NCBI GenBank assembly: GCA_963719495.1
Contig: CAVRCI010000003.1
Location: 1 to 64,000 of the forward strand
Direction: 5' to 3'
DNA length: 64,000 bases
Origin: an uncultured Verrucomicrobiae bacterium
Lineage (GTDB): Bacteria; Verrucomicrobiota; Verrucomicrobiia; Chthoniobacterales; JAATET01
The notes under the pieces were generated by a model. That model saw only the letters and a program-made list of their open reading frames with translations, had not been told where the DNA came from and searched no databases. This document shows, piece by piece, positions 1 to 36,576 of the stretch; within the stretch, counting starts at the first letter, position 1, and each line of letters opens with the position of its first letter. A program made the translations under genes and the position numbers.

Positions 1-45
1 CGCCTCCAGCGTCCAAACGTGATCCCGCAGCCCCAGCGTCTTCAT
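1..45 (-). CDS. 5' end of the next gene of the export operon ([15 protein letters not shown]...), probably the second NHLP-type ABC transporter; runs off the window
   Basis: ATG at 45-43 overlaps the TGA of the upstream transporter (ATGA coupling). Identity inferred only from the usual NHLM operon order. Confidence 0.4.
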
Positions 46-2190
46 TCCATTAACCTCGCGTAGGCTCCACCGACCTCGATCAGCTCCCGGTGCCGACCGC
101 TTTCCACGATCCGGCCATCGTCCAAAACGACGATCTGATCGGCGTCCCGGATCGTGCTCTAGCCGGTGCGCCACGATCAGACACGTGCAACCCCGCGCCC
201 GCAGATTTCCGGCGACGGCTTCCTCCGTCGACGGATCGAGTGCGCTCGTCGCCTCGTCGAGAATGAGAATGCTGCATTTTCTCCCACGAGAGCTCGCGCG
301 ATCTCGAGACGTTGACGCTGCCCGCCACTCAGATTGCTCCCGCCCTCCGTCAACTTGGCCTCGTAACCTCCCGGTCCGCGAACTCATCAGATCATGAATC
401 TCGGCGTCCCACGCCGGCCTTGATCATTCGCTGCGTCGGGATGCCCGCGTCCGACATCGTGAGATTCTCCCGGATCGTCCCACCGAAGAGAAAGATGTCC
501 TGATCCACCACGCCGACGCTCACCACGAGCAAAATCCCGTGGCACGCGCGGCCGCGGCACCCCGTCGAACAACACCTCCCCGGACCACGGCTCGTAAAGT
601 CCCGACGCCAGCTTCGACAACGTCGATTTCCCGCTCCCCTGATCTCCGATCAGCGCGACGCGTTCGCCCGCGCCGATCGTCAGGTCGAAATTTTCGATCA
701 GCGGCGGCTCCAGTCGACTGTAGCCGAACGTGACGTTACGGAAACTCAATCCGCCCCGACAGCCGGCGGCCTCTCCACCAGCGCCGGGTCCGCGTTCTCG
801 TCCGTGAGATGCGGCGCGCTCCCGGTCCGCAACACGTCGTCGAGTCGTCCCACGTCGCCCTCCGTCTGCTGCAGCGCCCCGCCCAGACTCACCAGCGTCG
901 CGACCGGCGCAAGGAAGCTCCCCATCAGCGTCTGAAACGCCACCAGCGTGCCAATCGTCAGATGACCATCCATCACCCGCAGCCCGCCGATCACGAGGAT
1001 TGCCGTCGTATTCAACGCCAGCAGCAACGCCGGCACGCTCAACAGGATCTGGTCAAACGTCGCCAACTCCTGCTTCACCACGAGCGCCTTCGCGTGGTGA
1101 CCCGCCCACCGCGTGAAGAACGAATCCTCCGCCCCCGAGGCCTTGAGCGTCTCGATCCCGCGCAACCCGCCGATCGTCACGCCCGACAGCTTTCCGCTCT
1201 CCTGCAGCACCCGCAGGTTCCCGTCCTTCCGAGCCCGTGACACCGCCACCAGCAGCCGGCATTCGGCCGCAGCCACCGTGACGCCGACGACCGTGAGCAC
1301 CCAGTTCTGCAACCGGAGCAGCAGAATGAGGTAGATCTCGCCGTGAAACACCCCAGCATCGCCGCCGCGAGCTGGCCGGAGAGCAGCGATGCGACCCGGT
1401 CGTTGATCGCGACCCGCGTCGCGATTTCTCCGCCGTGACGCTGGGCAAAGAACTCGATCGGCAGCGACAGAACGTGCCAGAAAAAACGGCTCGACGCCCG
1501 CAGCGCCAACTTCGTCTCCAGCCGCATCAGGTAGTTCGATCTGCACCCACGTCAACGCCGCCTGCACGAGGATCACGCCACCCATCGCCAGCAGCATCGG
1601 TCGCAGCCAAACAGCGTTCGCCCTGCACCAAAATCTGATCGAGAAAGATCCGCATGAACGCCGGCAACACCATCCCCGGCACCACCAGCGCCAGCCCCAC
1701 GCAGACGACGTAGAGCAAATCCCGCCGCGACCCGTGCAACCGCTCACCGAGCGCCCGAAGTAAACTCGGTCGCTCGCCGCCGCGCTGGAAGTCCGCCGTT
1801 TTCTCGAACGTGATCACCACGCCCGTGAACGACGTGTCGAAATCCTCTCGTCCGTCACCTTCCGCGGCCCCATCGCCGGATCGTTGAGGTGGACCTTCCC
1901 CCGCCGGAATCCCTCCAGCACCACGAAGTGATTGAACTCCCAGAAGATGATCGCCGGCAGCGGCAGGGTCCGCAATTCCGCCGGCTCCTTCCGGAACGCC
2001 CGCGGGGCGAGGCCGTAGGTCCGTGCCGCCTTCACGATATTGCTCGCCTTGCTCCCGTCCCGCGACACCCCGCACGCGATGCGCAACTCCTCCAGCGGCA
2101 CGATCCACCGTGATACGCCAGGATAATGGCCAACGTCGCCGCGCCGCACTCGACGGCTTCCATCTGGATGACGGTGGGTGTGCGAATCAC
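42..2190 (-). pseudogene. NHLP/NHLM-family C39 peptidase-containing ABC transporter; several frameshifts (decay or sequencing indels)
   Basis: Fragments across frames: [23 protein letters not shown] (C39 Cys), [14 protein letters not shown] (His), ABC membrane domain, [19 protein letters not shown], Walker [11 protein letters not shown]-terminus GGAYARLME*. Confidence 0.85.
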
Positions 2191-2202
2191 GAGACCGTTC
2201 GT

Positions 2203-3440
2203 TTAGTGAACCCCGAAGAGCTGACCGAACGGCAGCACCAGTGTGATCGGCCGCTGCCGTAGCACGACGATCTGACCCTCGGCGAGCGTGCCCGACGTGA
2301 TGTCCGTCGGCGGCCCCTGCGAGGTCGACCACGCAAACCCACTCGTCGTCGTTTCATCGGGAATCAATTCGACAGTCGCGATGATCGGATTGCCGCGAGC
2401 AAAGAGCTGCTCGACCAGCCGCGAATTGTGGAGGATGGGATTCCGCCGCCGCGTCCGTCGCTGGCAGTCCGCTCACGCTCACCACCGTCCCCTTCAGAAA
2501 CCCGTATTCCTCCCGCTTCGCCACTGAAGGTGCCAATTGCGCCGCCATACCCGGCTTCACCTTCTTACCCTCGCCCGCCGGGATGATACAGGCACTGCAG
2601 CGCCTCGTGCGTATTCTCGAGCGCCAGCACGCTTTCGCCCCGCCGCACCACGTCGCCAATGTCCGTCGCAATCTCAATGATCCGCCCGTCGAACGGACTC
2701 CGGATGTCGATCGCCTCGTCGTATTGCTTCTGCAGCGTGCGAAGTTCGCGCTCCGCGTCCGCGATGCCCAGCCGACGCGCCTCGTCCTTTTCGCGCAGCG
2801 TATTCATCATCTCGGATCGGCTGGTCTCCGTGTTCGCGAGTTCCACCCGTGCGTTCGACGCGCTCCGCCGACTGGAAGCCAGCGCCGTCTGGTTCGCCAG
2901 CAAAGTCGACCGCGGAATCAGGTCCCGCTTTGATATCCCGCGGATCTCCACCTGTCGGAAAGCGCCTTCGTTGCTCGTCGAAATCGGCCGTTATTGCTCA
3001 ACGTTTCCTTCGCTCGTCGAGCGCCGGACCGTCAAACGCAGATTCGTCGCGTTGGCCTCGTCGGGATCCCGTCGGCCTTTTCCAATTCCTTCAGCGCGCC
3101 GCCGCGTCTCCACCCGCACCTCCAGCTCGGGCAGCTCCAGGTGCCCGATCACCTCCCCCTTGCTCACGATGTCTCCCGACGCCCACCGTCAGGTCGATCA
3201 CCAGCCATCCCCGCGCGAAACGACTGAAACGCCCCACCCATCCGCACAAAAATCCCTGGCCCCGCCACCCGCGTCGGCAGCGATCCCAGCAGACTCCACG
3301 CCAGCGCCGCAACGAGGATTTCAACGATGGCGGCCAACGCCAACCAGGCCCGCCGCGCGGAGTCACCGCCAGCAACTGATCAAGCCGCTCGGTGACGAAG
3401 GTTTGTCGAGCGCCTTCCGGCCGAAAAGGTTCGATTGCAT
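2203..3440 (-). pseudogene. NHLP bacteriocin system secretion protein (HlyD family), frameshifted
   Basis: Reconstructed N-terminus MQSNLFGRKALDKPSSP-ERLDQLLAVTP; coiled coil; IRSPFDGRIIEI; GKKVKPGMAAQLAPSVAKREEYGFLKGTVVSVS. Confidence 0.85.
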
Positions 3441-3443
3441 CGG

Positions 3444-5020
3444 TTATCGGCGTGCGAGCCGCGAACGGAATGGTGGTCCAGAGCAACGGCGTGATCCAGC
3501 TGCCGGACTGTTCCACGGCAGGAGGGTTCCGTGTCGCACCGCAACTGCGCGATCCCGATCGCGTAACGCTCGCTCACGTCAACGAACGAAAGCTCGGCCG
3601 AGATCAATCGCTGCCGCGCGGCGATGACGTCGGTGATCGAGCCTGCCCGAGGGAGAGGAGTTCCTGCTGCGCCGACAACGCCTCACGATTGAACCGCGCC
3701 GCCTCCGCAACCGCAGCACCTGCGCCGCCGCGCTCCGCAATTCCGCGAAGACCGATCACCGACGACACGATGTTGCGCTCATATCCTCCACCGGATCCTG
3801 ACTGTCCGCGTACGTCGCCAGATCCTGGATCAACCCTCCGCGCTGGAACTGTTCTCGATCGGCCACTCGAGGTTCGCCGACGCTCCCGGTGAACTGCCCC
3901 CGCGATCCGTCGACGCCGACGACCGCGTGTCGAACGGCACGTATCCGCGTCCAGCCGCAGATCGATGATCGGCGCAAATTCAGAAACGACGCCGTCACCA
4001 GCACCTTCCGCGAAATCTCCAGCGACCGCGCCGTGCAAATCGTCGCGCAACGCCAGCGCCGCCGTCGTCAGGTCGATCAGCTCCGGGTAATCGGGATCGC
4101 TCTGGCGGCACCGGCAGCTCCGCCGAAGTCAGCGGAGCCAGCGCCACCCGGTCGGGACCGTTCCCATCGCCAGCGCGAGCCGCCGCCTCGCCTGAATGAG
4201 ACCCTGTTCGCTCTGATCCGCTGCGCCGCCGTGCTCTGCTGATCCGGCCGGATACTGCGACTGCGAACTCGCCAACTCCTGCGCCTCGACCATCGCCTCG
4301 ACGGTCCCGACCAGCCCGGGGGAAATTTCCTCGTTCTCGACCAGCGGCTCATACCGCTGCTCTGCTGCCGGCAGCTCCATACGTCGAGACCGTCGTCGAG
4401 CACCGCCTGCGACGTCACGTTCCGCAACGAAAACAACTCGCCCGCCGATCGAACTGCGCCGCGATCTCCGGCGCCTCGTTCACCGTCGTCCCAGCCCTCG
4501 ACCAGCGTGAATCGTTACGCCGAAATTAAACCCAGAACTCGCTCATCCATCGAATTTCTCCGGATCACTCCCACCCGCGAAGCGATAATTCGTCGTCGGC
4601 TCGACCACCACGCCGTCGCGGAATTTCTTCCGCAATCCCGACCTCGAATTTGTACAGCGAATTCCGCGCACAAACGCGATTCTGCCAATCCGCTCCCGCC
4701 GCCCGCCCCGCCGGCACAGCCCCCTCCCGCGGCGTCACCGAGCGATCCTCCCGCGCTCCGCGGTCCTCCGCGCCCACCACCGTCGTGTCAAATGGCCCCG
4801 CCGATCACGACGCCACCATCCGCAGCCCACCTGTTCCTCCTGCAGCGCGATCTGCGACTGTCTTCGAGCGTGGCAGAGACCGCCGCCGTCGGGTCGATCC
4901 GTGGCAGGTCGAATCCGAATTCCGACCGGGTGAACTCCCCACTCGCCGCCGCACCCCACCCGACCCGCCAGCCAGCATCAGGAGGCAGCGAACCCAGGCG
5001 ACCCGCCGAGCCCCACTCAC
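3444..5020 (-). pseudogene. TolC-family outer-membrane efflux protein, frameshifted
   Basis: Helical fragments AEAARFNREALSAQQELLSLG, ISAELSFVDVSERYAIGIAQLR and LIQARRRLALAMG; lies directly upstream of HlyD and the ABC. Confidence 0.6.
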
Positions 5021-5318
5021 ACGTAGCCGCGAACCGCTCCACCGGAGCCGTCACTCCGCCGGCCACCCGACTCGATTCCTCGCGGACTCAGCTCGCCGCC
5101 CTCCCACAGCACCCGCGGCAGCACGATGGAGAAACTTCCCGGCTCCTCGACGTGCACGTTCACCACGACATCCTCGCCCAGCGGCAGCCCGAACTCGGTC
5201 AACGCCGCGCGCGGCTCCCGGATCAACCGTTCGCGAAACGACGCGTCCACGAACTCCGCTCGATCAGGTAATCCTCGATCTCGCGCCGGGTCATGTTTTG
5301 AAAATCCGGACCGTTCAT
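5017..5318 (-). CDS. Nitrile-hydratase-leader (NHLP) family RiPP precursor-like protein; frameshifted, 3' end uncertain
   Basis: MNGPDFQNMTRREIEDYLIER / DASFRERLIREPRAALTEFGLPLGEDVVVNVHVEEPGSFSIVLP...GELS / EESSRVAGG matches the NHLP leader pattern with a double-Gly site. Confidence 0.75.
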
Positions 5319-5337
5319 GGTGCAATTCCACACGACC

Positions 5338-6148
5338 TTACGTCGAACCGCTCTCCGTGCCACGAGTTTCGGACGAACGGATCGTCCCCGGGCTGACGAG
5401 GGCGCCAGCGCCGACCCGCAGCGCTGCCAGACAGCGCCGACTCATCGGCCTGCTCGCCACAGACACCTCGATCTCCGCGAGTCCCCTTCCCCGCTCGCCG
5501 ACACCTCCAGCCGCCGGATCCGCGCCACGTTCGCGATCGTCGACCGATGAATCCGAATAAACCGCCGCCGCCCAGTGTCGCCTCCCACCGCACCAGCGAC
5601 CGCATCACCACCTCCGTCGCCCCGCCGCCAGCAACACCTGCGTGTGCATTTCCAATCGCGTGGATCGCGCAATGTCGTCGATCGCGATCAGCGCCGCCCC
5701 GCTCGAACGGCACGAAGATCCGCTGCACGGTCTCCGCCACCTCCGCACTCCCCGCCGCCCAGTCCAGCGCAGCAACCGCCGCACCGTCCGCCCCACCCGA
5801 TCGCTCTCCACCGGCTTCACCAGGAAATCCAACGCGTCCACCTCGAACGCCGCCGCCGCCCACCGCTCCTCACCCGCCAGCAGGATCACGTCCAACGACG
5901 AAGGCCGCTCCCCCAGCATCCGGAGCACGCGCTCACTTTCCCGTCCAAATCACAAAACAACAGCCGGGCCCCCGACCACGACACCTCGCCCAGCGACTCC
6001 GGCGTCCGCGTCACCGAGATCGCCGGATGCCGGAGCAAAAGCCGCTGCAAATGATCCCGAAACGTCCGGTCCGCCGAAAATATCTCCGCCACCAGCGGGA
6101 GCTGCGCACTCCGCCGGACGGCGGCGAAGATTCGGACACGCTTGGCAT
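5338..6148 (-). pseudogene. LytTR/AlgR-family response regulator, frameshifted
   Basis: Receiver fragments LLFCDLDG and AFEVDALDFLVKPVESDR; LytTR fragments FIRIHRSTIANVARI and PMSRR. Confidence 0.8.
5372..5404 (-). promoter_or_regulatory. Putative LytTR direct-repeat site upstream of the NHLP-leader/export operon
   Basis: CGCCCTCGTC ... TCCGTTCGTC on the minus strand, 23-nt period, in an indel-prone region. Confidence 0.5.
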
Positions 6149-6281
6149 GTAGGTTGTTGCGAAATCCATGCAAAGAGCTGCCTGCCAGGTCAAGAAGCAA
6201 CCGCTTCTGACAACCTTCGTTCAGAAAAATACCTCCCAAGGGAAGCAACCGCCCGGCGATGCGGCCCATCTCCCTGCTGCG

Positions 6282-6313
6282 ACCATTCATCCGGCCCTCG
6301 GCGGCCACTCGTC
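6282..6313 (+). promoter_or_regulatory. Putative LytTR direct-repeat site upstream of precursor 1
   Basis: ACCATTCATC (6282) and GCCACTCGTC (6304), 22-nt period, followed by CCAAACACTTGGACGAAA. Confidence 0.65.
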
Positions 6314-6410
6314 CCAAACACTTGGACGAAATTCCCAACCGCTGAAACCGTTCCATCCATCGAAACGCGAGCCACCACTGAGTTCAAAACGACCCAACGC
6401 AACCACAACC

Positions 6411-6749
6411 ATGAGCACCGAAAACATCACCAAATTCTCCGAAGCCGTTGCCGCCAGCCCCGACCTGCAGGCAAAAGTCCAGTTCATCCACGCCTCCACC
6501 GCCCGCGATGCCGCCGCCCGGATCGCCGCGTTGTCAGCCGAAACCGACGCACCCTTCACCGTCGAAGAATTCCTCGCCTCCGCGAACTCCGCCCAGGCCG
6601 AACTCACCGACGAGCAACTCGAAGCGGTCGCCGGTGGCAACCGGGAGGTTCTCGGCCGAGTCGCCGCCAGCATCTTCACCGCCGGTCTGGCCTGCCTGAT
6701 CATGTATCAGAATTCGCAGAACGGTGACCGCCCCCAGAATTGCATGTAG
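6411..6749 (+). CDS. Nif11-like leader lanthipeptide precursor 1
   Basis: Leader MSTENITKFSEAVAASPDLQAK...ELTDEQLEAVAGG; core NREVLGRVAASIFTAGLACLIMYQNSQNGDRPQNCM. Confidence 0.9.
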   Translation: MSTENITKFSEAVAASPDLQAKVQFIHASTARDAAARIAALSAETDAPFTVEEFLASANSAQAELTDEQLEAVAGGNREVLGRVAASIFTAGLACLIMYQNSQNGDRPQNCM

Positions 6750-6796
6750 TCCCCGCGAACATTCCCGCGCCCAGTCCGCAGGAGCGTCGGCGGAAA

Positions 6797-7635
6797 TTAC
6801 TCCGCCGTCGCAGCAGTTTGCAGTTGCTCGACGCTGCGAAGGACTTGGTCCGGCAGCGGATGCGCTTCCCGGGCTGCCACCAGGAAATCTTCCAGGTGCG
6901 GCCGTGAGGCTGTGCCGCCGATCGTCGTCTGGATGACGGACTCGCTGGCGGCCAACCGGAGGTTGAACGCGGTTAAATTGCGACAACCAACCGATTCGAC
7001 GAGCTGATCGAGAAGGTCCGCCTGGCGGCGCTGGATTTGTCACCGGGCCCTCCACCCAGAGTGCGCAAGGCCAATGTCGGGATCCGATTCTCACGAATCG
7101 TCGCCCAGGCCGTGGCGCTGCAATCGCGCTGACAGGCATTCCAATACAAGGTGACGCCGTCGATCAGCTCGCTGCGGGCGGCCCGCACGGCGGCATCGGA
7201 ATTTTGTGGAGTCAAAAAGATCACCGCCTGTCGGATGAGTCCCCGTGAGCGAAGAGAATCGAGTTCTTCAACAAGTGGGCCATCACCGGCGCACAGTTGA
7301 TCCACCAGATTGCCCGGATTGGCATCCATGGAAACGAGCTGCGCCACGTCAATTGATTCCAGTCCGAGACGGCGGCAGCTGTCCTCCACTTCAAACCGCA
7401 TTAATGACACCGACGCATCGCGCACTTTCAGAATCATCGGCGGAACTGCACTTCGATCTTCATCAAATGCCGTCCGCAAAACCATGTAGGTGAAGCCACT
7501 ATTGTAAGTCGGGCTGGAGTGAAACCAGACGCCCGCCTCCATCGCCCGCCGGGCCACAGCAAGGTCGCTTTTGATGTCGGCGGGATTCCTTCCCAACGAC
7601 ATGCTGCCGAAGGTGTAGGGGGTGAATGGTGTCAT
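6797..7635 (-). CDS. Aldo/keto reductase family protein, one frameshift near 7020
   Basis: FGSMSLG, HSSPTYNSG, VEDSCRRLGLESIDVAQL; the shifted frame continues LRLAASESVIQTTIGGTASRPHLEDFLVAA to TAA at 6797. Confidence 0.75.
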
Positions 7636-7778
7636 GCTTTTTCGGTAGGTTGGTCGGGTTGGAACGGCTTCGCCAAGCTATTCATCCTGGTCTCATTCGA
7701 AAAGGATACCTTGCGCTACGATCGCCTCGCCGTCAGACGACCCAACTGGCTCGACAAAGAATTTCCAAGCTTCTCGCC

Positions 7779-7810
7779 ACCACTCATCCAGCCCCCATCC
7801 GCCGTTCATC
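7779..7810 (+). promoter_or_regulatory. Putative LytTR direct-repeat site upstream of precursors 2-3 and lanM
   Basis: ACCACTCATC (7779) and GCCGTTCATC (7801), 22-nt period, followed by CCAATCGCTTGGACGAAA. Confidence 0.65.
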
Positions 7811-7898
7811 CCAATCGCTTGGACGAAAACCCGCGCCGATGAAAATTTCCCCTCCATCGGGAACGCCCACCACGATTCCCACTCAATCAGTCATAATC

Positions 7899-8264
7899 AT
7901 GAGCATCGAAAACATCACCAAATTCACCGAAGTCGTCGCCGCCAGCCCCGACCTCCAAGCCAAAATCCAGGCCATCCAAGCCGCCGCCGCCCGCGAGACC
8001 GCCGTGCGAATCGCTGCCCTCTCCGCCGAGACGGACGCGCCGTTCACCGCCGACGAGTTCCTCGCCTCCGCCCAATCCGCTCAAGGCGAACTCTCCGACG
8101 AACAACTCGAATCCGTCTCCGGCGGCTGGTGGAACTCCGGGGAGGCCAACGTCATGGCCAGCATCATTACCCTCGGCATCGGCTGCGCCTTCATCGCTTC
8201 GGCCTCCGCCTTGATCAAAGGCAACGAAGCCGACAAATGCCAACCCTCGCAGTGGGGGAAATAG
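7899..8264 (+). CDS. Nif11-like leader lanthipeptide precursor 2
   Basis: Leader ends ELSDEQLESVSGG; core WWNSGEANVMASIITLGIGCAFIASASALIKGNEADKCQPSQWGK. Confidence 0.9.
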   Translation: MSIENITKFTEVVAASPDLQAKIQAIQAAAARETAVRIAALSAETDAPFTADEFLASAQSAQGELSDEQLESVSGGWWNSGEANVMASIITLGIGCAFIASASALIKGNEADKCQPSQWGK

Positions 8265-8304
8265 TCCGCCGAGACCCATCACCCCACCCAGCAAACCAAA
8301 CACC

Positions 8305-8655
8305 ATGAGCACCGAAAACGTCACGAAGTTCACCGAAGCCGTCGCCGCCAGCCCCGAGCTTCAAGCGAAAGTCCAATCCATCCACGCCGCCGCCGCCCGC
8401 GAAGCCGCCGCCCGGATCGCCGCGTTGTCCTCCGAGACCGGCACTCCGTTCACCGCCGACGACTTCCTCGCAGCCACCCACCTCAACCATAGCGAGCTAT
8501 CGGACGAGCAACTCGGCGCGGTCGCCGGCGGAGGCTCAAACTATAGCGCGATCTACATCAACACCCACCTGGGTTGCGGCAGCATTCCCGCCAAGTTCGG
8601 TTCCGAGAAGGGCGGTGAGTTGGCTGACCTGCTCCGGAAAGACGGTCGTCCATGA
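8305..8655 (+). CDS. Nif11-like leader precursor 3
   Basis: Leader ends ELSDEQLGAVAGG; core GSNYSAIYINTHLGCGSIPAKFGSEKGGELADLLRKDGRP. Confidence 0.88.
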   Translation: MSTENVTKFTEAVAASPELQAKVQSIHAAAAREAAARIAALSSETGTPFTADDFLAATHLNHSELSDEQLGAVAGGGSNYSAIYINTHLGCGSIPAKFGSEKGGELADLLRKDGRP

Positions 8656-8683
8656 ACAAAGCGAACTCCCGTCCTTGAGTCCG

Positions 8684-11600
8684 GTGAAGGCGCTGGATCC
8701 CAGACTCGTCGACGACCGCCTCCGAGCGTGGGAGAGCGCCATCTCGGCTTCGCCGAACCCCGCGCGCCTCGCCCAGCGTTGGCGCTACCTGGGCTGGTCG
8801 ACCGACGAGGCGCGCACCCGACTCGCAGGAGCAGCCTTGTTCGAGACCCAGCCGCCAGACAAAGCGCACTCGCTCCTCCAACGCGGACTGGCGCGGCTCG
8901 AATCGTCCCCGCTCGGGCCGCTCGACGACGAAGTCCCCTTCGGCGAAATTTTCAGCCCGCTCGCCCACGCGACCGCCGACGGCCTCGCCGGATTACCCCT
9001 CAGTCTCGTCCGGGAACTCACCCGCACGCTCGCCGAACTCGCCGCCCCGGCGCTCATCAGCGAATTGAGCAGCGGCCGCCTCGGCCTCCTCCCGCCTCGA
9101 CGGGAACCCTACGCCCGCCTCGCCGTGGACCTCCGAGCGGGCGGTCTCCGCTCCCGCCTCGACCGCTGGCCAGTCCTCGCGCGCGAACTCGCACTCGCCC
9201 TGCAGCACTGGCGCACGAGCGTCGCGGAGTTTCTCGACCGACTCGCCCGGGATCGTGAGGCACTGGCGGAGACGTTCCCCGGGGCTGAGGGCGACATCAT
9301 CGCCATCGACGGCCAACTCGGCGACGCCCACCGCGGCGGTCGGCGTGTCATGGGCCTCACCTTCGCGGACGGTCGTCGCTTGATCTACAAACCCCGCGGC
9401 CTCCGGATGGACGTTGCCTGGCACGACCTCATCGAATGGCTGCGCATCCGCAATCCGGCCAGCCAACTCCGCGCGCCTCACGCGCTCGACCGCGGCGACT
9501 ACGGCTGGGTGGAATTCGTCGCCCCCGGCACCCCCGCCGATCCCGCGGCCTACTACCACAGCGCCGGCGAACTCCTCGCGCTCGCCTGGATCTGTGGCGG
9601 CTCGGATTTTCACGAGGAAAACGTCATCGCCACCGCAAACGGCCCCGTCCTCATCGATCTGGAAACCCTCTTCACGCCCACCCCGAGGCCGTTCGGCGCG
9701 ACCGATGCAGAACTCGCCGCCGCCGGCGACGCGCCCACTTTCGACACGGGGGTTCTCACCACCCTCCTGCTCCCCGTCTGGCAGATCGACGAACGCGGCA
9801 ACGCCCGCGACCTCAGCGGCTTCAGCGGGACGCAACGCGCTTCGGCGGGTTGGCACGAACCGACCTGGCTCGACCTCGGCACCGACCGAATGCGCCAGGA
9901 AATGCGCCCCGCTCCCGACCAGCAGCCGGGCAACGTTCCCCGCGACGCCGCCGGCCACCTCATCCCGGCCACGCCTTTTGCCGACGAGGTCGTCACCGGC
10001 TTCACCGCCGCGGCCCGCACCCTGCTCGCCGCCCGCTACGACCTCCCGCTCGCGCCGTTTCGGGGTGCCGAGATTCGCTTCCTCGTTCGAAACACCCAGA
10101 TCTACGGCGTCATGCGCCAGCGCCTCGGACGACCGGAATTTCTCGCCAGCGCCATTGATCGCTCGATCGAGATCGAGAAACTGGCCCGGCCCTTTCTCCC
10201 ACCCGACCCCGCCGCCGATTGCCCGGAGGTCTTCAAATGCTACGAAGCGGAACGTCGCGGCCTCGAGAATGGCGACATCCCCATCTTCCACGCGCACAAC
10301 GACGAGACGACCCTCCGCGGGGACGGCGGCGTCGCCGTGCGCGATTACTTCTGGCGCACCGGCTGGCAGAACGCTCAGGACAAGCTCCGCCAGCTCGACG
10401 CGAGCGTCATCGCCGAACAAGCCGCCCTCGTGCGCGCCAGCCTCACCCTTCGCTACTCAAAATCAGACCCCGCACCGCCGGACGACTGGCTCGGCGTCGC
10501 GACCTCCATCGCCGGGGACCTCGCCGCCCGCGCCATCCCGCTGCGCGACGGCGGCATCTCGTGGCTCTCGTTCGGCTTCGATCCGCTGCGCAAGATGCAG
10601 ACGGCCTCCCTCATGGGCCTCGATCTCTACAGCGGTTCCCTGGGAGTCGCCGTCTTTCTTGCCGCCCTCGCTCGCGTGACCGGCGAATCCCGTTGGCTCG
10701 ACCTCGCCCTCGACTCGACGCGCCCGCGCCTCGACGAAATGCGCCGCGACCGCAACCGCCCCTTCCTCACGCACCTGCCACTTGGCGTCGGCTCCGGCCT
10801 CGGCTCGCTCCTCTACGGCTCCCAACTCCTGGCCAATCTCACCGGCCAGGACGACTACCTCGAAGACGCGGCCTTTTTCGCAAAACTCATCGGTGAGCGT
10901 CCCGACACTCCCGGCGACATCGACGACCTCCTCGGTGGTGGGGCCGGGGCCATCCTCGCGCTCGTCCAGCTCCACGCGCAGACCGGCGATCCCTCGCTCC
11001 TCGAGTCCGCGATCCGGCTCGGCGACACCCTCGTCGCCCGCCGCGTCGCCTCCGGCGACGGCCTCCGCGCCTGGCAGCCGGAGTTCGCTCTCCGCCCGCT
11101 CACCGGACTCGCTCACGGAGCCGCCGGATTCGCCTGGGCGCTCAGCCGACTCGGCGAGGCCACCGGAGAGTCACGCTTCCTCGAAGCCTCCACCGAAGCC
11201 ATCGCCTACGAACGCTCCACGTTCCGCCCCGACCCGGGGAACTGGCCCGACTTCCGCCGCGGCGCGTGCACGACCGATCGCGACGCCTTCATGTGGGGTT
11301 GGTGCTCCGGCGCTCCCGGCGTCGGCCTGGCCCGAATCGCGCAGGGATTTTCGGACACGGAAACCCGCACCGAAATCAACGTCGCCATCGCCGACGCCCG
11401 TCACGGTCCAGCGCTAACCCCCACCCACCTCTGCTGCGGCGAATCCGCGCGCATCGAACTCCTCCTCGAAGCCTCAAAAATCACGCCGCACTCCGACCTG
11501 CGAGAAGCGGCGGTCGCCCGCGCCCGCCCCATCCTCACCCAGCGAAACGACGCCGGTCATTTCCCGCTCACGGGTGCCGACCGCGGGCGACTCTTTGCCC

Positions 11601-11695
11601 CGTCCTTCTTCCAGGGCACCACCGGGGTTGGCTACACCTTCCTCCGGCTCCTCGATCCCTCCCTCCCCTCGGTTGCCAGTTTGCAACCGAGGTGA
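8684..11695 (+). CDS. lanM: Class II lanthipeptide synthetase LanM (start may be 8615, 8675 or 8684)
   Basis: Dehydratase motifs GDAHRGGR, IYKPR, YGWVEFV, DFHEENVI, LIDLETLF, RFLVRNTQIY, GDIPIF; cyclase motifs DLYSG, GLAHGAAG, WCSGAPG, HLCCG, FFQGTTGVGY. Confidence 0.95.
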   Translation: MKALDPRLVDDRLRAWESAISASPNPARLAQRWRYLGWSTDEARTRLAGAALFETQPPDKAHSLLQRGLARLESSPLGPLDDEVPFGEIFSPLAHATADGLAGLPLSLVRELTRTLAELAAPALISELSSGRLGLLPPRREPYARLAVDLRAGGLRSRLDRWPVLARELALALQHWRTSVAEFLDRLARDREALAETFPGAEGDIIAIDGQLGDAHRGGRRVMGLTFADGRRLIYKPRGLRMDVAWHDLIEWLRIRNPASQLRAPHALDRGDYGWVEFVAPGTPADPAAYYHSAGELLALAWICGGSDFHEENVIATANGPVLIDLETLFTPTPRPFGATDAELAAAGDAPTFDTGVLTTLLLPVWQIDERGNARDLSGFSGTQRASAGWHEPTWLDLGTDRMRQEMRPAPDQQPGNVPRDAAGHLIPATPFADEVVTGFTAAARTLLAARYDLPLAPFRGAEIRFLVRNTQIYGVMRQRLGRPEFLASAIDRSIEIEKLARPFLPPDPAADCPEVFKCYEAERRGLENGDIPIFHAHNDETTLRGDGGVAVRDYFWRTGWQNAQDKLRQLDASVIAEQAALVRASLTLRYSKSDPAPPDDWLGVATSIAGDLAARAIPLRDGGISWLSFGFDPLRKMQTASLMGLDLYSGSLGVAVFLAALARVTGESRWLDLALDSTRPRLDEMRRDRNRPFLTHLPLGVGSGLGSLLYGSQLLANLTGQDDYLEDAAFFAKLIGERPDTPGDIDDLLGGGAGAILALVQLHAQTGDPSLLESAIRLGDTLVARRVASGDGLRAWQPEFALRPLTGLAHGAAGFAWALSRLGEATGESRFLEASTEAIAYERSTFRPDPGNWPDFRRGACTTDRDAFMWGWCSGAPGVGLARIAQGFSDTETRTEINVAIADARHGPALTPTHLCCGESARIELLLEASKITPHSDLREAAVARARPILTQRNDAGHFPLTGADRGRLFAPSFFQGTTGVGYTFLRLLDPSLPSVASLQPR

Positions 11696-11707
11696 CCTCT
11701 CCGGATC

Positions 11708-12067
11708 TCAACGCCAGTCCTTGGGCTGGCAGTTCGTGACCTCAGGAGCCGCCGCGGTCAGGATCCCGGATATCGCACACATCAGCCCCAGAGAGAAAAG
11801 GCTCGCCATCACGTTGGTCGGCGAGTCCGCCTTCCAGCCCGCGCCACCCGCGACGGCTCCCAGCTCTTCTTCCGACAACTCCCGCGTCGTCGCCGCCGCG
11901 CTGGCGAGGAATTCTTCTCCGGTGAACGGAGTTCCCACTTCCCGCGACAAGTCCGCCAAGTCTGCAGCCGCCGCCTTCGCCGCGTCCGCGTGGATTGCCT
12001 GAACTTTCGCCTGGAGCTCGGGATCGTTGGCGATCGCCGCGCTGAATTTTTCAATGTTTGGATTCAT
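11708..12067 (-). CDS. Nif11-like leader lanthipeptide precursor 4
   Basis: Leader MNPNIEKFSAAIANDPELQAK...ELSEEELGAVAGG; core AGWKADSPTNVMASLFSLGLMCAISGILTAAAPEVTNCQPKDWR. Confidence 0.9.
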   Translation of the reverse strand: MNPNIEKFSAAIANDPELQAKVQAIHADAAKAAAADLADLSREVGTPFTGEEFLASAAATTRELSEEELGAVAGGAGWKADSPTNVMASLFSLGLMCAISGILTAAAPEVTNCQPKDWR

Positions 12068-12141
12068 GATTTGATTTTTGTGATTCGATCTCTCGACGAG
12101 CCGATTGGACCTCCTCCATCGCAGCCAAACCACCCCTTTGT

Positions 12142-12173
12142 GCCGAACGGCCGGCAGACCCCGGACGAACGGC
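12142..12173 (-). promoter_or_regulatory. Putative LytTR direct-repeat site upstream of precursor 4
   Basis: GCCGTTCGTC and GCCGTTCGGC on the minus strand, 22-nt period. Confidence 0.7.
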
Positions 12174-12206
12174 TGTCCGTCGCAACAAATCCCCACCGCG
12201 TATCCG

Positions 12207-13526
12207 CTACGGCACTCGCGTCGCCATGAACTCCTGCAACCGCTCCCGCATCACCACAACGTCGCTGCCGTAATCATACTCGCCGATCCGATTCTCCGAT
12301 TCGCCCGGGTCACTTGCCAGATCGAACAGCACGTCGGGACCCCATTCCCCGAAGGTGAGATATTTCAAATTGCCGCGCTTGATCATGAAATGATCCGCCT
12401 CGAATTGCGAAAACGTCTCGTTCTCCCACCGCCCGTCACGCCCCTCGAGGAGCGGCAACAAGCTCCGTCCGTCGAGATCATCCGGCACGCCGATCCCGGC
12501 CAGCCCACACAGCGTCGGATACACATCCACGAGGTTCACGTTCTGCCGTCGCCGTCCCGGCGCAAACCGCTCGACGTCCCGCACAAACAGCGGCACCCGC
12601 ACACTTCCCTCGTAAAATTTCCGTTTCTCCCAGAGCGAATGCTCGCCCAACATCTCGCCGTGGTCCGCCGTGAAAACGATGGTCCACTCGTCCGGATCCT
12701 CCCCCTCGTCCCGCAGCCCCTGGAGCACTCGACCAAACTCCGCGTCGACCCGCTCCACCAACGCGTAGTAGGCCGCCGTCGCGTCGAGCACCTGCTCCGC
12801 CGTCACGACGTCTCCGCACGGCAACGCGCCGATCGCCAGCGCCGGATGACCCGGCACCCCCTCGTCCGTCCGGGCCCTCACCCGCTCGCGGTAATAATCG
12901 AACGTCTCCCGATCCGCCAGCAGCGGGAAATGCGGCTGCTGCAGACTCACCTTGAGCAGCACCGGGGGCGATTCCGTCTCACCCCGCCGATACATTCCAC
13001 CGAAATGCATCCGCAGGAAATCCAGCGCACCGTCGACCGTGTACTCGTCGTGAATCTCGAGCGGCGATTCGCCCACCCCGGCCAACGCCAGTTCTTCCGC
13101 CCCCCGCCATTTCATCCGACCGACCTGTGCCCGCCGCCGATTCGGTGGGGTATCCGGCCAATTCACCGCCGCCTCCGATCCGATCCGGTGCATCCAGCCC
13201 TGCATCTGATCCGGCCCCCGGTGGTGCAGCTTCCCGCACGCCACGGTGTAATAACCCGCCTCGGAAAAGCGCCGCGCGAACGTATCCGAACCCGGCTCGA
13301 GGTCATCGCCAAAATACTCGCACCCGATGTGCAGCGGATATTTACCCGTCGCCAGACACTGCCGCCCGGGGATGCAAACCGGCGACGCTGCGTAAGCATT
13401 GTCGAAAATGACCGCCTCCTCCGCGAGGGCATCGAGATTCGGGGTCCGACACACCGGGTTCCCCATGAACCCCGGCAAATCAAACCGCAGCTCGTCCGCC
13501 ATCAAAAAAAGCACGTTCCGCCCCAT
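12207..13526 (-). CDS. Sulfatase (formylglycine-dependent, choline-sulfatase-like)
   Basis: NVLFLMADELR, TPNLDALA, CIPGR (CxPxR), GKLH, FTADHGEMLGEH, YEGSVRVPL. Confidence 0.93.
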   Translation of the reverse strand: MGRNVLFLMADELRFDLPGFMGNPVCRTPNLDALAEEAVIFDNAYAASPVCIPGRQCLATGKYPLHIGCEYFGDDLEPGSDTFARRFSEAGYYTVACGKLHHRGPDQMQGWMHRIGSEAAVNWPDTPPNRRRAQVGRMKWRGAEELALAGVGESPLEIHDEYTVDGALDFLRMHFGGMYRRGETESPPVLLKVSLQQPHFPLLADRETFDYYRERVRARTDEGVPGHPALAIGALPCGDVVTAEQVLDATAAYYALVERVDAEFGRVLQGLRDEGEDPDEWTIVFTADHGEMLGEHSLWEKRKFYEGSVRVPLFVRDVERFAPGRRRQNVNLVDVYPTLCGLAGIGVPDDLDGRSLLPLLEGRDGRWENETFSQFEADHFMIKRGNLKYLTFGEWGPDVLFDLASDPGESENRIGEYDYGSDVVVMRERLQEFMATRVP

Positions 13527-13649
13527 CGCGCCGCTCGGTATGCCCCGACCCCACCCCACCGCGCAAGCCTAAGCGACTCCCCGCCACCAGACGGCCACCC
13601 AACACCAACGCTCGCCACGACGCGTAAATTCGGGAAACCTCCGCCATCC

Positions 13650-15743
13650 ATGCCGCATCGACCCGTCCTCACCCACACCCACACCCACGGCGAACACAAG
13701 CTCCGCTACGGCCACCCGCTTCCCTTCGGCGCGAGCCTGATCCCCGGCGGCATTAATTTCTCCATCTACTCGGCCAACGCAACGGCCTGCACGCTCGTCC
13801 TCTTCGAGCGCGGAGCCACCCACCCATTCGTCGAGATCCCGTTCCCGCCGGAATTCCGCATCGGCGACGTCTTTGCGATGATCGTGTTCGAACTCGATTC
13901 GCAGCGTATCGAATACGGCTACCGCTTCGACGGCCCCAGCGATCCCGCGCACGTCCATCGCTTCGACCCCTCCCTCGTCCTCCTCGACCCACTCGCCACC
14001 GCGATCGCCGGTCGCGAGACCTGGATGCAACCCGCCGACCCCCACATCGACTACCCCCACCGCGCCCGCATCATCGAGGAAGATTTCGACTGGGGTCACG
14101 ACCGACCTCTGCAGATCCCGGAAGCCAAACTCGTTATCTACGAGATGCACGTCCGCGGATTCACCCGCCACGAGTCTTCCGGCGCCACCCACCCCGGCAC
14201 CTTCGATGCCATCCGCGAAAAAATTCCCTACTTCCAGTCCATCGGCATCAATTGCCTCGAACTCCTCCCCATTTTCGAATTCGACGAACGGGAAAATACC
14301 CGCACCAACCCGCTCACGGGCGAGACCCTTTGCAATTACTGGGGCTACAGCACCGTCGGGTTCAACGCCCCGAAATCCGCGTTCGCCGCCAGCGGCCCAA
14401 CCGGCGACCAGGCCAACGAAGTCCGCGCGCTCGTCAAGGACCTTCACGCCGCCGGCATCCAAATCGTTCTCGATGTCGTCTTCAATCACACCGCCGAGGG
14501 CGGCGAAGGCGGCCCCACCATTTCATTCCGCGGCATCGACAATAAGACCTACTACATGCTCCTGCCCGACGGCGGCTACGCGAACCACACCGGCTGCGGA
14601 AACACGGTGAATTGCAACCACCCCATCGTCCGCAATTTCGTCCGCGACACCCTTCGCTACTGGGCCGCCGAATACCACATCGACGGCTTCCGCTTCGACC
14701 TTGCCTCCGTCCTCGGCCGCGACGAAAACGGCGCGCCGCTCGCCGACCCGCCGCTCATCGAAGACCTCGCCCACGACCCCGTCCTGGCCAACTGCAACCT
14801 CATCGCCGAAGCCTGGGACGCCGGCGGCCTCTACCAGGTCGGCAATTTCCCCGACTACGGCCGCTGGACCGAGTGGAACGGCAAATTCCGCGACGCCGCC
14901 CGCCGCTTCCTCAAAGGCGACGCCGGCCTCACCGGCGAGATCGCCCAGCGCATCATGGGATCCCCCGACCTCTACCGCGCCGCCGGTCGCAAGCCGACCG
15001 CATCCGTCAATTTCATCACCTGCCACGACGGCTTCACCCTCCACGACCTCTTCGCCTACAACGAAAAGCACAACCTCGAGAACGGCGAGACGAACCGCGA
15101 CGGCACCAACGATAATCTCAGCTGGAACTGCGGAGCCGAAGGTCCCACCGACGACCCGAAAATCAACGCCCTCCGCCTGCGCCTCCAAAAAAATGCCCTC
15201 ACTCTCCTCATGTTGAGCCAGGGCGTCCCAATGATCTGGATGGGCGACGAATGCGAGCGCACCCAACGCGGCAACAACAATGCCTACTGCCAGGACGAGC
15301 CGTGGAATTGGTTTGACTGGACGCTCACCGACAACAACGAACTCCTCGCCTTCTTCAAAAAACTCACCGCCCTCCGCCGCGACTACCCCGCCCTCCGCCA
15401 GCCGGAATTCCTCACCGGCCACGATTGCGTCGGCAGCGGCTACCCCGACATCTCGTGGCACGGCACCGAGCCGTGGCAGCCCGATTGGTCGGCCGACGCC
15501 CACACCGTCGCCTTCCTCCTCTGCGGCCGCCACGCGGAGAAACTCCCCAACAGCCCCGCCACCTTCCTCTACGCCGCCTTCAACATGCACTGGGAGGACA
15601 AGACCTTCGAACTCCCCATCCTCCCCAAAGGCCTCACCTACCACCCGATCCTCGACACCGCCACCGACGACGCAACCGCGCCCAAGGAAAACAAAATCAC
15701 CCTAAAACCCCGCTCCATCCAAATCCACACCGGCAAAACCTAA
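13650..15743 (+). CDS. glgX: Glycogen debranching enzyme / isoamylase (GH13)
   Basis: GINFSIYSANA, IYEMHVRGFT, NYWGYST, DVVFNHTAEG, DGFRFDLA, LIAEAWD, NFITCHDGFTL, RTQRGNNNAYCQD. Confidence 0.96.
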   Translation: MPHRPVLTHTHTHGEHKLRYGHPLPFGASLIPGGINFSIYSANATACTLVLFERGATHPFVEIPFPPEFRIGDVFAMIVFELDSQRIEYGYRFDGPSDPAHVHRFDPSLVLLDPLATAIAGRETWMQPADPHIDYPHRARIIEEDFDWGHDRPLQIPEAKLVIYEMHVRGFTRHESSGATHPGTFDAIREKIPYFQSIGINCLELLPIFEFDERENTRTNPLTGETLCNYWGYSTVGFNAPKSAFAASGPTGDQANEVRALVKDLHAAGIQIVLDVVFNHTAEGGEGGPTISFRGIDNKTYYMLLPDGGYANHTGCGNTVNCNHPIVRNFVRDTLRYWAAEYHIDGFRFDLASVLGRDENGAPLADPPLIEDLAHDPVLANCNLIAEAWDAGGLYQVGNFPDYGRWTEWNGKFRDAARRFLKGDAGLTGEIAQRIMGSPDLYRAAGRKPTASVNFITCHDGFTLHDLFAYNEKHNLENGETNRDGTNDNLSWNCGAEGPTDDPKINALRLRLQKNALTLLMLSQGVPMIWMGDECERTQRGNNNAYCQDEPWNWFDWTLTDNNELLAFFKKLTALRRDYPALRQPEFLTGHDCVGSGYPDISWHGTEPWQPDWSADAHTVAFLLCGRHAEKLPNSPATFLYAAFNMHWEDKTFELPILPKGLTYHPILDTATDDATAPKENKITLKPRSIQIHTGKT

Positions 15744-17535: not shown

Positions 17536-17860
17536 GTTCAGCAAACACAGTCGGCAAAGCCGACCCATCCAAGAAAAAATCCTGTCAGGTCGAGGACCAC
17601 GAACGCGCAGGCGAGTCGAGAAGCCAGTGATAACATTGGCAACCCGGCGGCGTCAGCCGACCCCATCGGGCATTCGGAGGGCGAGGCTCCGCCGAGCCGT
17701 GGCTTTCACGTTGGAATTCCGCGTCACTGAAGCCCAAGCTGCGTCCCTCCCGGTCACCCAAATCAAGCGTCCAAACACTTCAACCATCATAGACCCCCGA
17801 ACGTGGCAGCTTTCCCGTGGCAGCAAAAGGACTGCCGTCGTATCTCGTGGATCGGGAAAG

Positions 17861-17932
17861 TGGGTTGGCTGGGACTCGAACCCAGAACCAATGCCTTAAA
17901 AGGGCACTGCTCTACCATTGAGCTACCAACCC
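17861..17932 (-). tRNA. tRNA-Lys (anticodon UUU), CCA not encoded
   Basis: GGGTTGGTAGCTCAATGGTAGAGCA-GTGCC-CTTTTAA-GGCAT-TGGTT-CTGGGTTCGAGTCCCAG-CCAACCCA folds as a cloverleaf. Confidence 0.95.
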
Positions 17933-35379: not shown

Positions 35380-36576
35380 TCAGCCCGGGATCCAGAACGT
35401 TTCCTGCGTTCTCAGCGGGCGGGGCTCCCCGGCGACCTGGAGCGTAATGGTGGCGGCGGGAGAGTCGGGCAGCGGGTCGGACAATCCGCGGAGGAACAGA
35501 CGTTCGCCGCACTGCTCGAACTCGACCGGTTCGCCGGTCGCCTGCCAGCGGGCGCTCAACACTTCGTTGCCGATCTCGGCGAGGCAAAATTCGTCACCCG
35601 GGCAGCGGATCAGATGCACGAAAACCTGCCGACCCTTCGTGGTGATCAGCGCGCTGTTGTTCCACGAGAACGGCGAGCGATCCGAATCCGCCAGAATGTC
35701 GTGATGCCGCCGGACCCAGCGCCCGGCCTCTTCGATGATGCGGACACTTGCCTCCGGGATGCGTCCGTCGCCGCGCGGCCCGACGTTGAGCAGCAAATTC
35801 CCGGCGCTGCCCGCGGTGGTGAGAAGCATTCGGACGACGTCGGCGGGCGTCTTCCAGTTCGTGTCGCCGACGTGCCAGCCCCAGTTATCGTTCAGCGTCA
35901 TGCACGCCTCCCACGGGCCCTGCTTCGCGCTGAGCGACTGCTCGGAGCAGCGAAAATCGAACGGCTCACCGTTGCGTTCGTTGATCAGGATGCCGGGCTG
36001 GAGTTCCTTCGCCAGCCGGTTGGTGTCGCCCCCGTCGCGGAGGGCCGGAATCCCGCCGTCGTACCAGAGAACGTCGATCCGGCCGTAGTTCGTCATGAGC
36101 TCGCGCATCTGCGCCTGCACAAACGAGGCAAAGCCCCGCCGCGCGTCCTCCGAAGCCCACTCATCCGTCCAGTCCCTCGCGTAGGGCGTCGGATAGTCGG
36201 CGTGAAACCAATCCGCGACGGAGTAGTAAAATCCCACGCGCAGCCCCTCGGCCCGCACCGCCTCGACAAACGGTCGCAGCAGGTCGCGACATGCGCCGAT
36301 CTTCGCCGACTGAAAATCCGTCGTCGCCGTGTCCCAGAGACAAAACCCATCGTGATGCCGCGTCGTGAGAACGACGTATTTCATACCGCCCCGCTTCGCC
36401 AAGCGCGCCCATTCAGCAGGATCGTAATTCTCCGCGGTGAACGCCGCGGCGTAACGGTCCCGGTATTCCTCGAAGGGAATGCACTCGCGATTGGCGACCC
36501 ATTCACCCCGCCCGGCAACCGAGTAGGGCCCCCAATGCACAAAAAGACCGTAGCGCGCCGCCGAGAACCATTCCAT
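35380..36576 (-). CDS. Alpha-L-fucosidase (GH29)
   Basis: YGLFVHWG, GMKYVVLTTRHHDGFCLW, GFYYS, LMTNYGRIDVLWYDG, INER, WEACMT, NLLLNVGP. Confidence 0.95.
   Translation of the reverse strand: MEWFSAARYGLFVHWGPYSVAGRGEWVANRECIPFEEYRDRYAAAFTAENYDPAEWARLAKRGGMKYVVLTTRHHDGFCLWDTATTDFQSAKIGACRDLLRPFVEAVRAEGLRVGFYYSVADWFHADYPTPYARDWTDEWASEDARRGFASFVQAQMRELMTNYGRIDVLWYDGGIPALRDGGDTNRLAKELQPGILINERNGEPFDFRCSEQSLSAKQGPWEACMTLNDNWGWHVGDTNWKTPADVVRMLLTTAGSAGNLLLNVGPRGDGRIPEASVRIIEEAGRWVRRHHDILADSDRSPFSWNNSALITTKGRQVFVHLIRCPGDEFCLAEIGNEVLSARWQATGEPVEFEQCGERLFLRGLSDPLPDSPAATITLQVAGEPRPLRTQETFWIPG

Follow-up and report, generated by a model that had tools for sequence, protein, structure and literature searches.

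A class II lanthipeptide island with one LanM, four Nif11-leader precursors and its own exporter in a verrucomicrobium

Introduction

Does a locus in which one class II lanthipeptide synthetase (LanM) lies among several precursor genes make a diversifying library of unrelated peptides, or a small and fixed set of products? The question is raised by the first 64 kb of contig C3 of a verrucomicrobium of soil or sediment (GenBank assembly GCA_963719495.1, contig CAVRCI010000003.1, positions 1 to 64,000; genome 4.54 Mb, 98.6% complete), a stretch that we call the window. An earlier note on this DNA had described four precursors with similar leaders of about 75 amino acids (aa) and cores of 36-45 aa around one intact LanM in a probable verrucomicrobium. 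Both statements are borne out here: the leaders measure 75-76 aa, the LanM occupies a frame of 1026 aa, and an uncultured Verrucomicrobiae bacterium provides the closest record (93% nucleotide identity). The C39 exporter and the regulator that the note placed next to these genes are present at the locus as well, although assembly noise splits them in the letters of the window; they are intact in an overlapping copy of the locus on contig C2 (exporter) and in the locus of a relative, L001 (regulator). In our reading, to which we assign a probability of about 0.68, the locus is a horizontally acquired class II lanthipeptide island, in which one LanM with a CCG zinc site would modify four precursors with Nif11 leaders and a complete NHLM-type exporter would cleave and export the products.

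Judged from their sequences, the gene families and the architecture belong among the Nif11/NHLP-LanM clusters with NHLM exporter known from genome mining in 2010. Haft, Basu and Mitchell described Nif11 and NHLP precursors together with LanM and the TIGR03794/03796/03797 export cassette in several phyla, beyond cyanobacteria, and their paper mentions Verrucomicrobia 0 times (PMC2887384). A different class II precursor family, DUF6229 with a CHG-type LanM, is reported for Verrucomicrobiota in PMC13509491, and the main text of PMC7268733 does not mention 'Verrucomicrobia'. The literature that we searched on class II lanthipeptides and Nif11 peptides in Verrucomicrobia describes no such cluster, in agreement with the earlier note, which knew of no characterised example in this lineage. 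Specific to the island are its host phylum, in which LanM clusters are rare, a conserved core family, the acquisition as an island, and a LytTR regulator/NHLP peptide pair with candidate regulator boxes.

The synthetase and its precursors

The central genes of the island are the following.

6411..6749, plus strand: precursor A1, 76-aa Nif11 leader and 36-aa core ending NCM
7899..8264, plus strand: precursor A2, 76-aa leader and 45-aa hydrophobic core of the W type
8305..8655, plus strand: precursor A3, 76-aa leader and 40-aa core of the second type, with one Cys, directly upstream of lanM
8615..11695, plus strand: LanM, class II lanthipeptide synthetase with CCG zinc site, single open frame of 1026 aa
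11708..12067, minus strand: precursor A4, 75-aa leader and 44-aa core of the W type

The LanM matches TIGR03897 with 635 bits (cut-off 304) over model positions 33-932 and consists of an N-terminal dehydratase domain (PF13575/DUF4135, 310 bits, residues 185-560) and a C-terminal cyclase domain (PF05147/LANC_like, 181 bits, residues 667-1018). Because the annotated orthologue, which is 95% identical, has 1003 aa, translation probably starts at 8684, just past the stop codon of A3. In an alignment to LicM2 (PDB 6st5) the zinc ligands are present, with WCSG opposite WCHG and CCG opposite CHG. The CCG motif, which PMC8524650 and PMC13509491 treat as a mark of ProcM-like enzymes, occurs in 95 of 121 aligned LanMs. 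The closest LanMs in a set of 5.8 billion clustered proteins share 95, 64, 61 and 59% identity with it; eight more follow at 45-47% and then matches at ≤36%, where the named sequences come from filamentous cyanobacteria, Rubrobacteraceae, Vicinamibacterales and Ktedonobacteraceae. A FastTree phylogeny of the 121 sequences unites 13 LanMs in a clade with support 1.0; all 13 carry CCG and WC[AS]G, and C897, C940 and C941 are invariant among them. As the tree of 121 contains no ProcM sequence, 'ProcM-like' is to be taken as a description of the motif.

All four leaders end at Gly-Gly (residue 75 or 76) and are, by sequence, of Nif11 type. PF07862 (cut-off 23.8) gives 22.5, 23.1, 32.0 and 24.2 bits for A1 to A4, and TIGR03798 (cut-off 32.3) gives 27.8, 30.3, 41.4 and 32.1 bits, so that two of the four pass the former and one passes the latter; A4 exceeds the TIGR03798 cut-off when its neighbours are read in frame. 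A1, A2 and A3 are 75-81% identical in DNA, and the leaders that remain below the cut-offs are clearly paralogous. Every core contains several Ser/Thr, together with two Cys in A1, A2 and A4 and one in A3. In character the cores are hydrophobic, with many small residues and small-residue motifs.

The cores of A1, A2 and A4 can be aligned with one another and with cores from the relatives' loci L006, L007 and L009, whose LanMs are ~46% identical to that of the island. Their common W-type pattern consists of Gly-Gly, usually x-Trp, N-[IV]-x2-S-[IL]-x-[ST]-x-G-x2-C, ~15-17 further residues and a second Cys, often in C-Q-P; all 8 aligned W-type cores, which come from four loci, keep the Ser, the Gly and both Cys. 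We predict that the LanM dehydrates Ser/Thr and forms thioether rings in all four precursors. In the W-type cores the invariant Cys would close a ring onto the conserved Ser at -8 or the Ser/Thr at -5, and the C-terminal Cys would form a larger one with a Ser/Thr that precedes it by ~10-13 residues, while A3, with its one Cys, would receive one ring.

Genomic insertion and distribution

The island measures ~17.3 kb and lies between zwf and a sulfatase gene (C2:18899-13780 plus window 1-12216), with its right edge at ~12210; the sulfatase gene ends at 12207 in the window. We regard it as an insertion at a variable site because the site is empty in the congener G403, where the sulfatase stop codon is followed within ~16 bp by sequence equal to C2:18900 on the zwf side, and because the congener G401 holds a different insert of 9.5 kb there (L026 9514-19022, G401:C3), which encodes a DDE transposase, an IS200-like transposase and NHL- and FG-GAP-repeat proteins. 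The zwf/sulfatase site is a hotspot of variable content. A full LanM match came from none of the 400 other genomes sampled from the phylum and from one of five other genomes of the genus; one of the 400 yielded a LanC-like match of 73 bits. The genus member with the full match, G404, is a relative at 93% nucleotide identity whose locus, L001, supplied the orthologues for genes that are frameshifted in the window. Horizontal acquisition is the best explanation for the island. A search of its edges for direct repeats or att-like sites returned no shared word of ≥8 nt, and no integrase was seen within it.

Two side observations belong here. The only tRNA gene of the window, a tRNA-Lys (TTT) at 17860-17932 on the minus strand, lies ~5.6 kb from the right edge and does not adjoin the island. 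Far from the island, a stand-alone LanC-like gene (G000:C13:280429-281574, 395-aa frame) scores 122 bits on the LanM model, and a similar stand-alone gene occurs in the congener G402, which is without the island.

The exporter and the site of action

Three genes of the export system lie within the window.

45..2190, minus strand: ABC1, C39 peptidase/permease/ATPase exporter, frameshifted in the window, intact with 711 aa at L002:11603-13738
2193..3446, minus strand: HlyD-type periplasmic adaptor, frameshifted in the window, intact with 417 aa at L002:10337-11590
3450..4950 (approximate), minus strand: TolC-like outer-membrane factor, broken in both noisy copies

L002 denotes the overlapping copy on contig C2, from which the intact ABC1 and HlyD frames were taken. 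In this copy, ABC1 matches TIGR03796 with 1069 bits (cut-off 853) and shows Peptidase_C39, ABC_membrane and ABC_tran domains, HlyD matches TIGR03794 with 336 bits (cut-off 156), and ABC2, which is positioned beyond the start of the window, matches TIGR03797 with 864 bits (cut-off 709). All three NHLM exporter components thus exceed their equivalog cut-offs and adjoin the precursors. The TolC-like gene is recognised by PF02321 (49 bits) at C2:9874-10239, roughly window 3540-3905; full OEP genes adjoin the exporter genes in L006 and L007, and an OEP-like frame follows the NHLP gene in L001. Beyond ABC2, the left part of the inserted segment (L002:17900-18950) holds the gene of an MgtE magnesium transporter and a small secreted-looking protein, a 111-aa frame with a signal-like N-terminus.

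According to this gene content, the C39 domain of ABC1 would cut the 75-76-aa leaders after Gly-Gly during export, and ABC1 would work together with ABC2, HlyD and the TolC-like protein, so that the peptides cross both membranes. We expect the products to be hydrophobic, probably membrane-active peptides in a fixed set, acting outside the cell and possibly jointly, and not a diversifying library.

Whether such peptides need be antibiotics is a question of its own, since non-antibiotic roles as signals, membrane peptides or morphogens are debated for prochlorosins. Here, too, the producer itself could use the peptides as signals, as components of its surface or membrane, or as morphogens, a view that we hold to be unlikely but that accords with the absence of a recognised immunity gene from the island and with the peptide and LytTR pair that it carries. 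The function of prochlorosins is stated as unknown in PMC8524650 and PMC10783134. An antimicrobial role is favoured by the hydrophobic cores with their small-residue motifs and by A2, which passes the class IIb bacteriocin model TIGR03949 (24.5 bits, cut-off 21.5) across the Gly-Gly/cleavage region and the start of the core, and the dedicated tripartite exporter points to extracellular action; neither argument is decisive. A plantaricin C family model reached 17 bits on A4 (cut-off 29), and no mersacidin-like lipid II-binding motif is visible by eye in the four cores.

Conservation of the core family

Compared to the leaders, the cores change little between orthologous loci. For the four precursors together, comparison of the window with G404 shows 21 differences over 303 leader positions against two over 165 core positions (Fisher p = 0.006). 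A Ser-to-Thr change is one of these two, and the A1 core is identical in L001. A2 and P0247, the latter belonging with a LanM of 64% identity, have 25 differences over 76 leader positions and 7 over 45 core positions (p = 0.054). An A1-like orthologue, P0261, lies on the same contig as a 64%-identical LanM.

The W-type family is rare. A profile of the eight cores retrieved 16 cluster representatives at E ≤ 0.001 from 1.84 billion proteins, three of them at ≤ 1e-10 and one of them A4 itself. In the 14 of these 16 that could be retrieved, a leader end of the Gly-Gly type is followed by a similar core. Nine precursor matches were looked up and two bear names, both being Nif11 precursors of a metagenome-assembled genome of Terrimicrobiaceae, another verrucomicrobial family; a word search with the A2 core alone led to two proteins. 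The relatives' loci hold six (L007), three (L006) and, in the short L009, one precursor, with ABC and OEP genes nearby in each, and their precursors comprise at least three core types. L006 and L007 also have a precursor directly upstream of lanM, in the position of A3, with an [IV]-Y ... G-C stretch, a resemblance that is weak. As a separate observation, both loci contain a conserved lipoprotein-like gene of ~180 aa without Pfam family between the TolC-like gene and the precursors (L007:3934-4491 and L006:1066-1596), a counterpart of which was not found by tblastn in L001 or the C2 copy.

These data bear on the view of the earlier note that the locus is a prochlorosin-style combinatorial system, in which a promiscuous LanM would process a diversifying library of unrelated cores. 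Part of the comparison stands: one LanM goes with several Nif11 precursors and carries the CCG zinc motif, four cores are present per LanM, the W-type paralogues A1, A2 and A4 are only 32-36% identical in their cores, and relatives have 3-6 precursors with at least three core types. The combinatorial part is not supported. Searches of the whole genome with TIGR03798, TIGR03793 and the LanM model found no Nif11, NHLP or LanM gene outside the locus, apart from its duplicate on the other contig end and the stand-alone LanC-like gene on C13. Homology links three of the four cores; from one orthologue to the next the cores scarcely change, in contrast to the drifting leaders; and the same core family returns with LanMs that are only 46-64% identical. 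Because orthologous cores change less than leaders, we favour a fixed multi-peptide product, with which this pattern, the reverse of that of a hypervariable-core library, fits; a combinatorial library appears improbable to us. The W-type cores are, to the extent of the literature examined, a new and rare family without described or characterised member.

Regulator, NHLP peptide and reductase-like gene

Further features lie between the exporter and A4 or just beyond it.

5017..5318, minus strand: precursor with NHLP leader and 13-aa Cys-less core VTAPVEQFFRGYV after Gly-Gly, frameshifted in the window
5340..6200 (approximate), minus strand: LytTR-family response-regulator-like gene, frameshifted in the window, intact 287-aa frame at L001:1116-1979
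6283..6314, plus strand: direct repeat CCATTCATCC-N12-CCACTCGTCC, candidate LytTR box in the region that separates the divergent A1 and regulator genes, 97-128 nt upstream of A1
6797..7635, minus strand: aldo/keto-reductase-like gene between A1 and A2, one frameshift near 7018-7036, intact with 279 aa in L001/G404
7780..7811, plus strand: direct repeat CCACTCATCC-N12-CCGTTCATCC, 88-119 nt upstream of A2
12141..12172, minus strand: direct repeat CCGTTCGTCC-N12-CCGTTCGGCA, 74-105 nt upstream of A4

The regulator gene is divergent from A1, and its orthologue in L001 matches PF04397 with 48.9 bits, besides weak matches to BtsR and LytR. For the NHLP gene, the orthologue at L001:790-1113 scores 56.6 bits on TIGR03793 (cut-off 50.9) and the pieces in the window and the C2 copy score 31 and 29 bits; the core VTAPVEQFFRGYV is the same in the C2 copy and in L001. 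This Cys-less peptide, encoded next to the regulator, may act as a signal or may just be one more exported peptide.

The regions upstream of A1, A2 and A4 have little in common beyond paired 10-bp direct repeats, CCRYTCRTCC, with a 12-bp spacer, which lie 74-128 nt ahead of the start codons and are conserved in L001. The pattern CCRYTCRTCC-N12-CCRYTCR, itself derived from these three sites, occurs three times in the window against 0.00 expected, and in the whole genome only at the three sites and at two C2 duplicates of them; other spacers of 8-16 bp gave four unrelated matches in total. Looser matches at 36139 (three mismatches) and 49070 (one mismatch, inside an open reading frame) were taken as chance and set aside. 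LytTR regulators such as AgrA and ComE go with paired repeats and a spacer of 12-13 bp. The three direct repeats are candidate LytTR boxes and, as such, a lead, through which the regulator may drive the precursor genes.

The reductase-like gene shows a weak match to PF00248 (E 0.0074), a domain that its homologues carry, and by eye the catalytic Asp and His positions usual in aldo/keto reductases look substituted, with Tyr and Lys kept. Most of its 307 homologues are 69-79% identical, some of them named Terrimicrobiaceae. Six of the 400 sampled phylum genomes contain the gene, none of them together with a full LanM, and among 41 relatives surveyed it occurs only in the two that carry the island, with which it moves together. 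The idea that it is a regular partner of Nif11 peptides was not supported: in five loci with the gene (L020-L024) no Nif11 leader lies within ~1.5 kb of it.

A bolder reading would make the island a Gram-positive-style peptide quorum circuit in a diderm, with the 13-aa NHLP peptide as pheromone leaving through the same C39 pump as the lantibiotics, LytTR answering via the boxes at A1, A2-A3-lanM and A4, the products forming a new membrane-active, multi-component lanthipeptide family, and the reductase-like protein possibly being a new tailoring enzyme. We consider this doubtful. Gram-positive class II bacteriocin circuits (ComC-ComE, plantaricin A-PlnC/D, AgrA boxes) combine a Gly-Gly peptide pheromone with LytTR regulation. 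The island resembles them in its short Gly-Gly-leader peptide gene beside a LytTR regulator and a C39 ABC exporter and in its repeats of ~9-10 bp with a 12-bp spacer; unlike them, it has a leader that is an NHLP domain of ~90 aa and not of 20 aa, no recognised histidine kinase, and a Gram-negative host. A Cys-less NHLP peptide adjoining a LytTR regulator, and a 10-bp repeat with 12-bp spacer upstream of three precursor genes, are features new here.

Assembly overlap and frameshifts

In the letters of the window, the genes for the C39 exporter, HlyD, the LytTR regulator, the NHLP peptide and the reductase-like protein are each broken across several frames. Window 1-13737 aligns in reverse complement to C2:1-13779; identity is 97.3%, indels are numerous, and the aligned segment runs exactly up to the end of each contig. 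Each copy has its worst quality near its own contig end, and the two differ most at window 4001-5000, where 500-bp intervals contain 27-48 mismatches. ABC1 (711 aa) and HlyD (417 aa) are intact in the C2 copy, where LanM is broken. An independent public short-read run, X1, which covers the locus with short low-depth contigs only, sides with the C2 copy at 12 of 12 listed indels in window 1-6000 (one more indel is not displayed), among them those within ABC1 at 640, 645, 1845 and 2106. At 6523-6864, 8404-8937 and 9747-10168 the X1 contigs equal the window with zero differences. We treat the frameshifts as errors because the X1 indels agree with C2 and C2 holds ABC1 and HlyD intact: the frameshifts in the first ~6-7 kb of the window reflect a noisy contig end, not biology.

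For the same reasons, a pseudogenised exporter was rejected. Genome-wide family searches had also returned a second, broken cluster on C2, with a broken LanM and two more precursors; this was rejected as the same locus assembled twice in a dovetail overlap, and because the contig ends dovetail, genome-wide counts hit the locus twice. In G404, the 1.45-Mb contig C7 likewise ends inside the island, within the TolC-like gene (~window 4241), and MgtE lies on C8. That two assemblies break in the same stretch hints at a feature that makes sequencing or assembly difficult.

That the cluster is decaying and non-functional, with exporter, regulator and reductase-like genes as true pseudogenes, is highly improbable: the window letters do split these genes across several frames and the reductase-like gene is broken in the C2 copy too, but there it breaks at a different place from the C3 copy, as the two copies do generally, ABC1 and HlyD are intact in C2, the X1 indels side with that copy, G404 has intact regulator, NHLP and reductase-like genes, and LanM and all four precursors are intact.

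Discussion

The reading of the locus as an acquired island with one LanM, four substrates and its own exporter has to be weighed against several points. The leaders of A1 and A2 lie under both curated Nif11 cut-offs (PF07862 and TIGR03798), and the ring assignments given above are guesses from conserved positions. In the LanM clade the first zinc-ligand motif is WC[SA]G, not WCHG, and under midpoint rooting the sister of the 13-member clade consists of 26 tips, all of the CHG type (support 0.92). The regulator, NHLP and OEP genes are single frames in neither copy of the genome and were read from the 93%-identical L001. The repeat motif was counted in the same promoters from which it came, and the upstream regions of A1 and A2 are paralogous, so that the genome count is not independent. 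Neither a histidine kinase nor an immunity gene was recognised in the island.

Among known systems, the clusters of 2010 come close. As described in PMC2887384, they share with the island the same three exporter families and Nif11 and NHLP precursors side by side, adjoining a LanM-like enzyme; the island differs by its outer-membrane factor, by its LytTR regulator with candidate boxes, and by a core family for which no described member was found. With the prochlorosin system of ProcM and with SyncM of marine picocyanobacteria, it has in common a CCG (three-Cys) LanM, long Nif11-type Gly-Gly leaders and one enzyme for several precursors, as described in PMC8524650. It is unlike these systems in having only four precursors, all at the locus, with cores in two conserved families that are more constrained than the leaders, in a LanM that is ≤36% identical to any named cyanobacterial LanM among the matches listed, in its full ABC1/ABC2/HlyD/TolC exporter and LytTR regulator, and in its verrucomicrobial host. 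Roseocin of Streptomyces (PMC10027976) likewise combines one LanM with similar leaders, different cores and a small fixed product set that could act together; the island leaders, however, are of Nif11 type, and the diderm host needs a TolC-like channel. Two-peptide (alpha/beta) lantibiotics pair a mersacidin-like lipid II-binding alpha peptide with an elongated beta peptide; by eye, the island cores show no such alpha motif.

Conclusion

Once the apparent second, broken cluster and the apparent broken exporter are recognised as artefacts of two overlapping noisy contig ends, a trap that is hereby corrected, the locus presents itself as a clean, compact and complete expression target with one enzyme, four substrates and its own exporter. 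From it, a first view of lanthipeptide chemistry could be gained for Verrucomicrobiota, where LanM is very rare. In addition, a LanM of the CCG type, usually discussed as a generalist, can be linked here to substrates that are few and under strong constraint, which bears on the question whether the CCG motif implies promiscuity.

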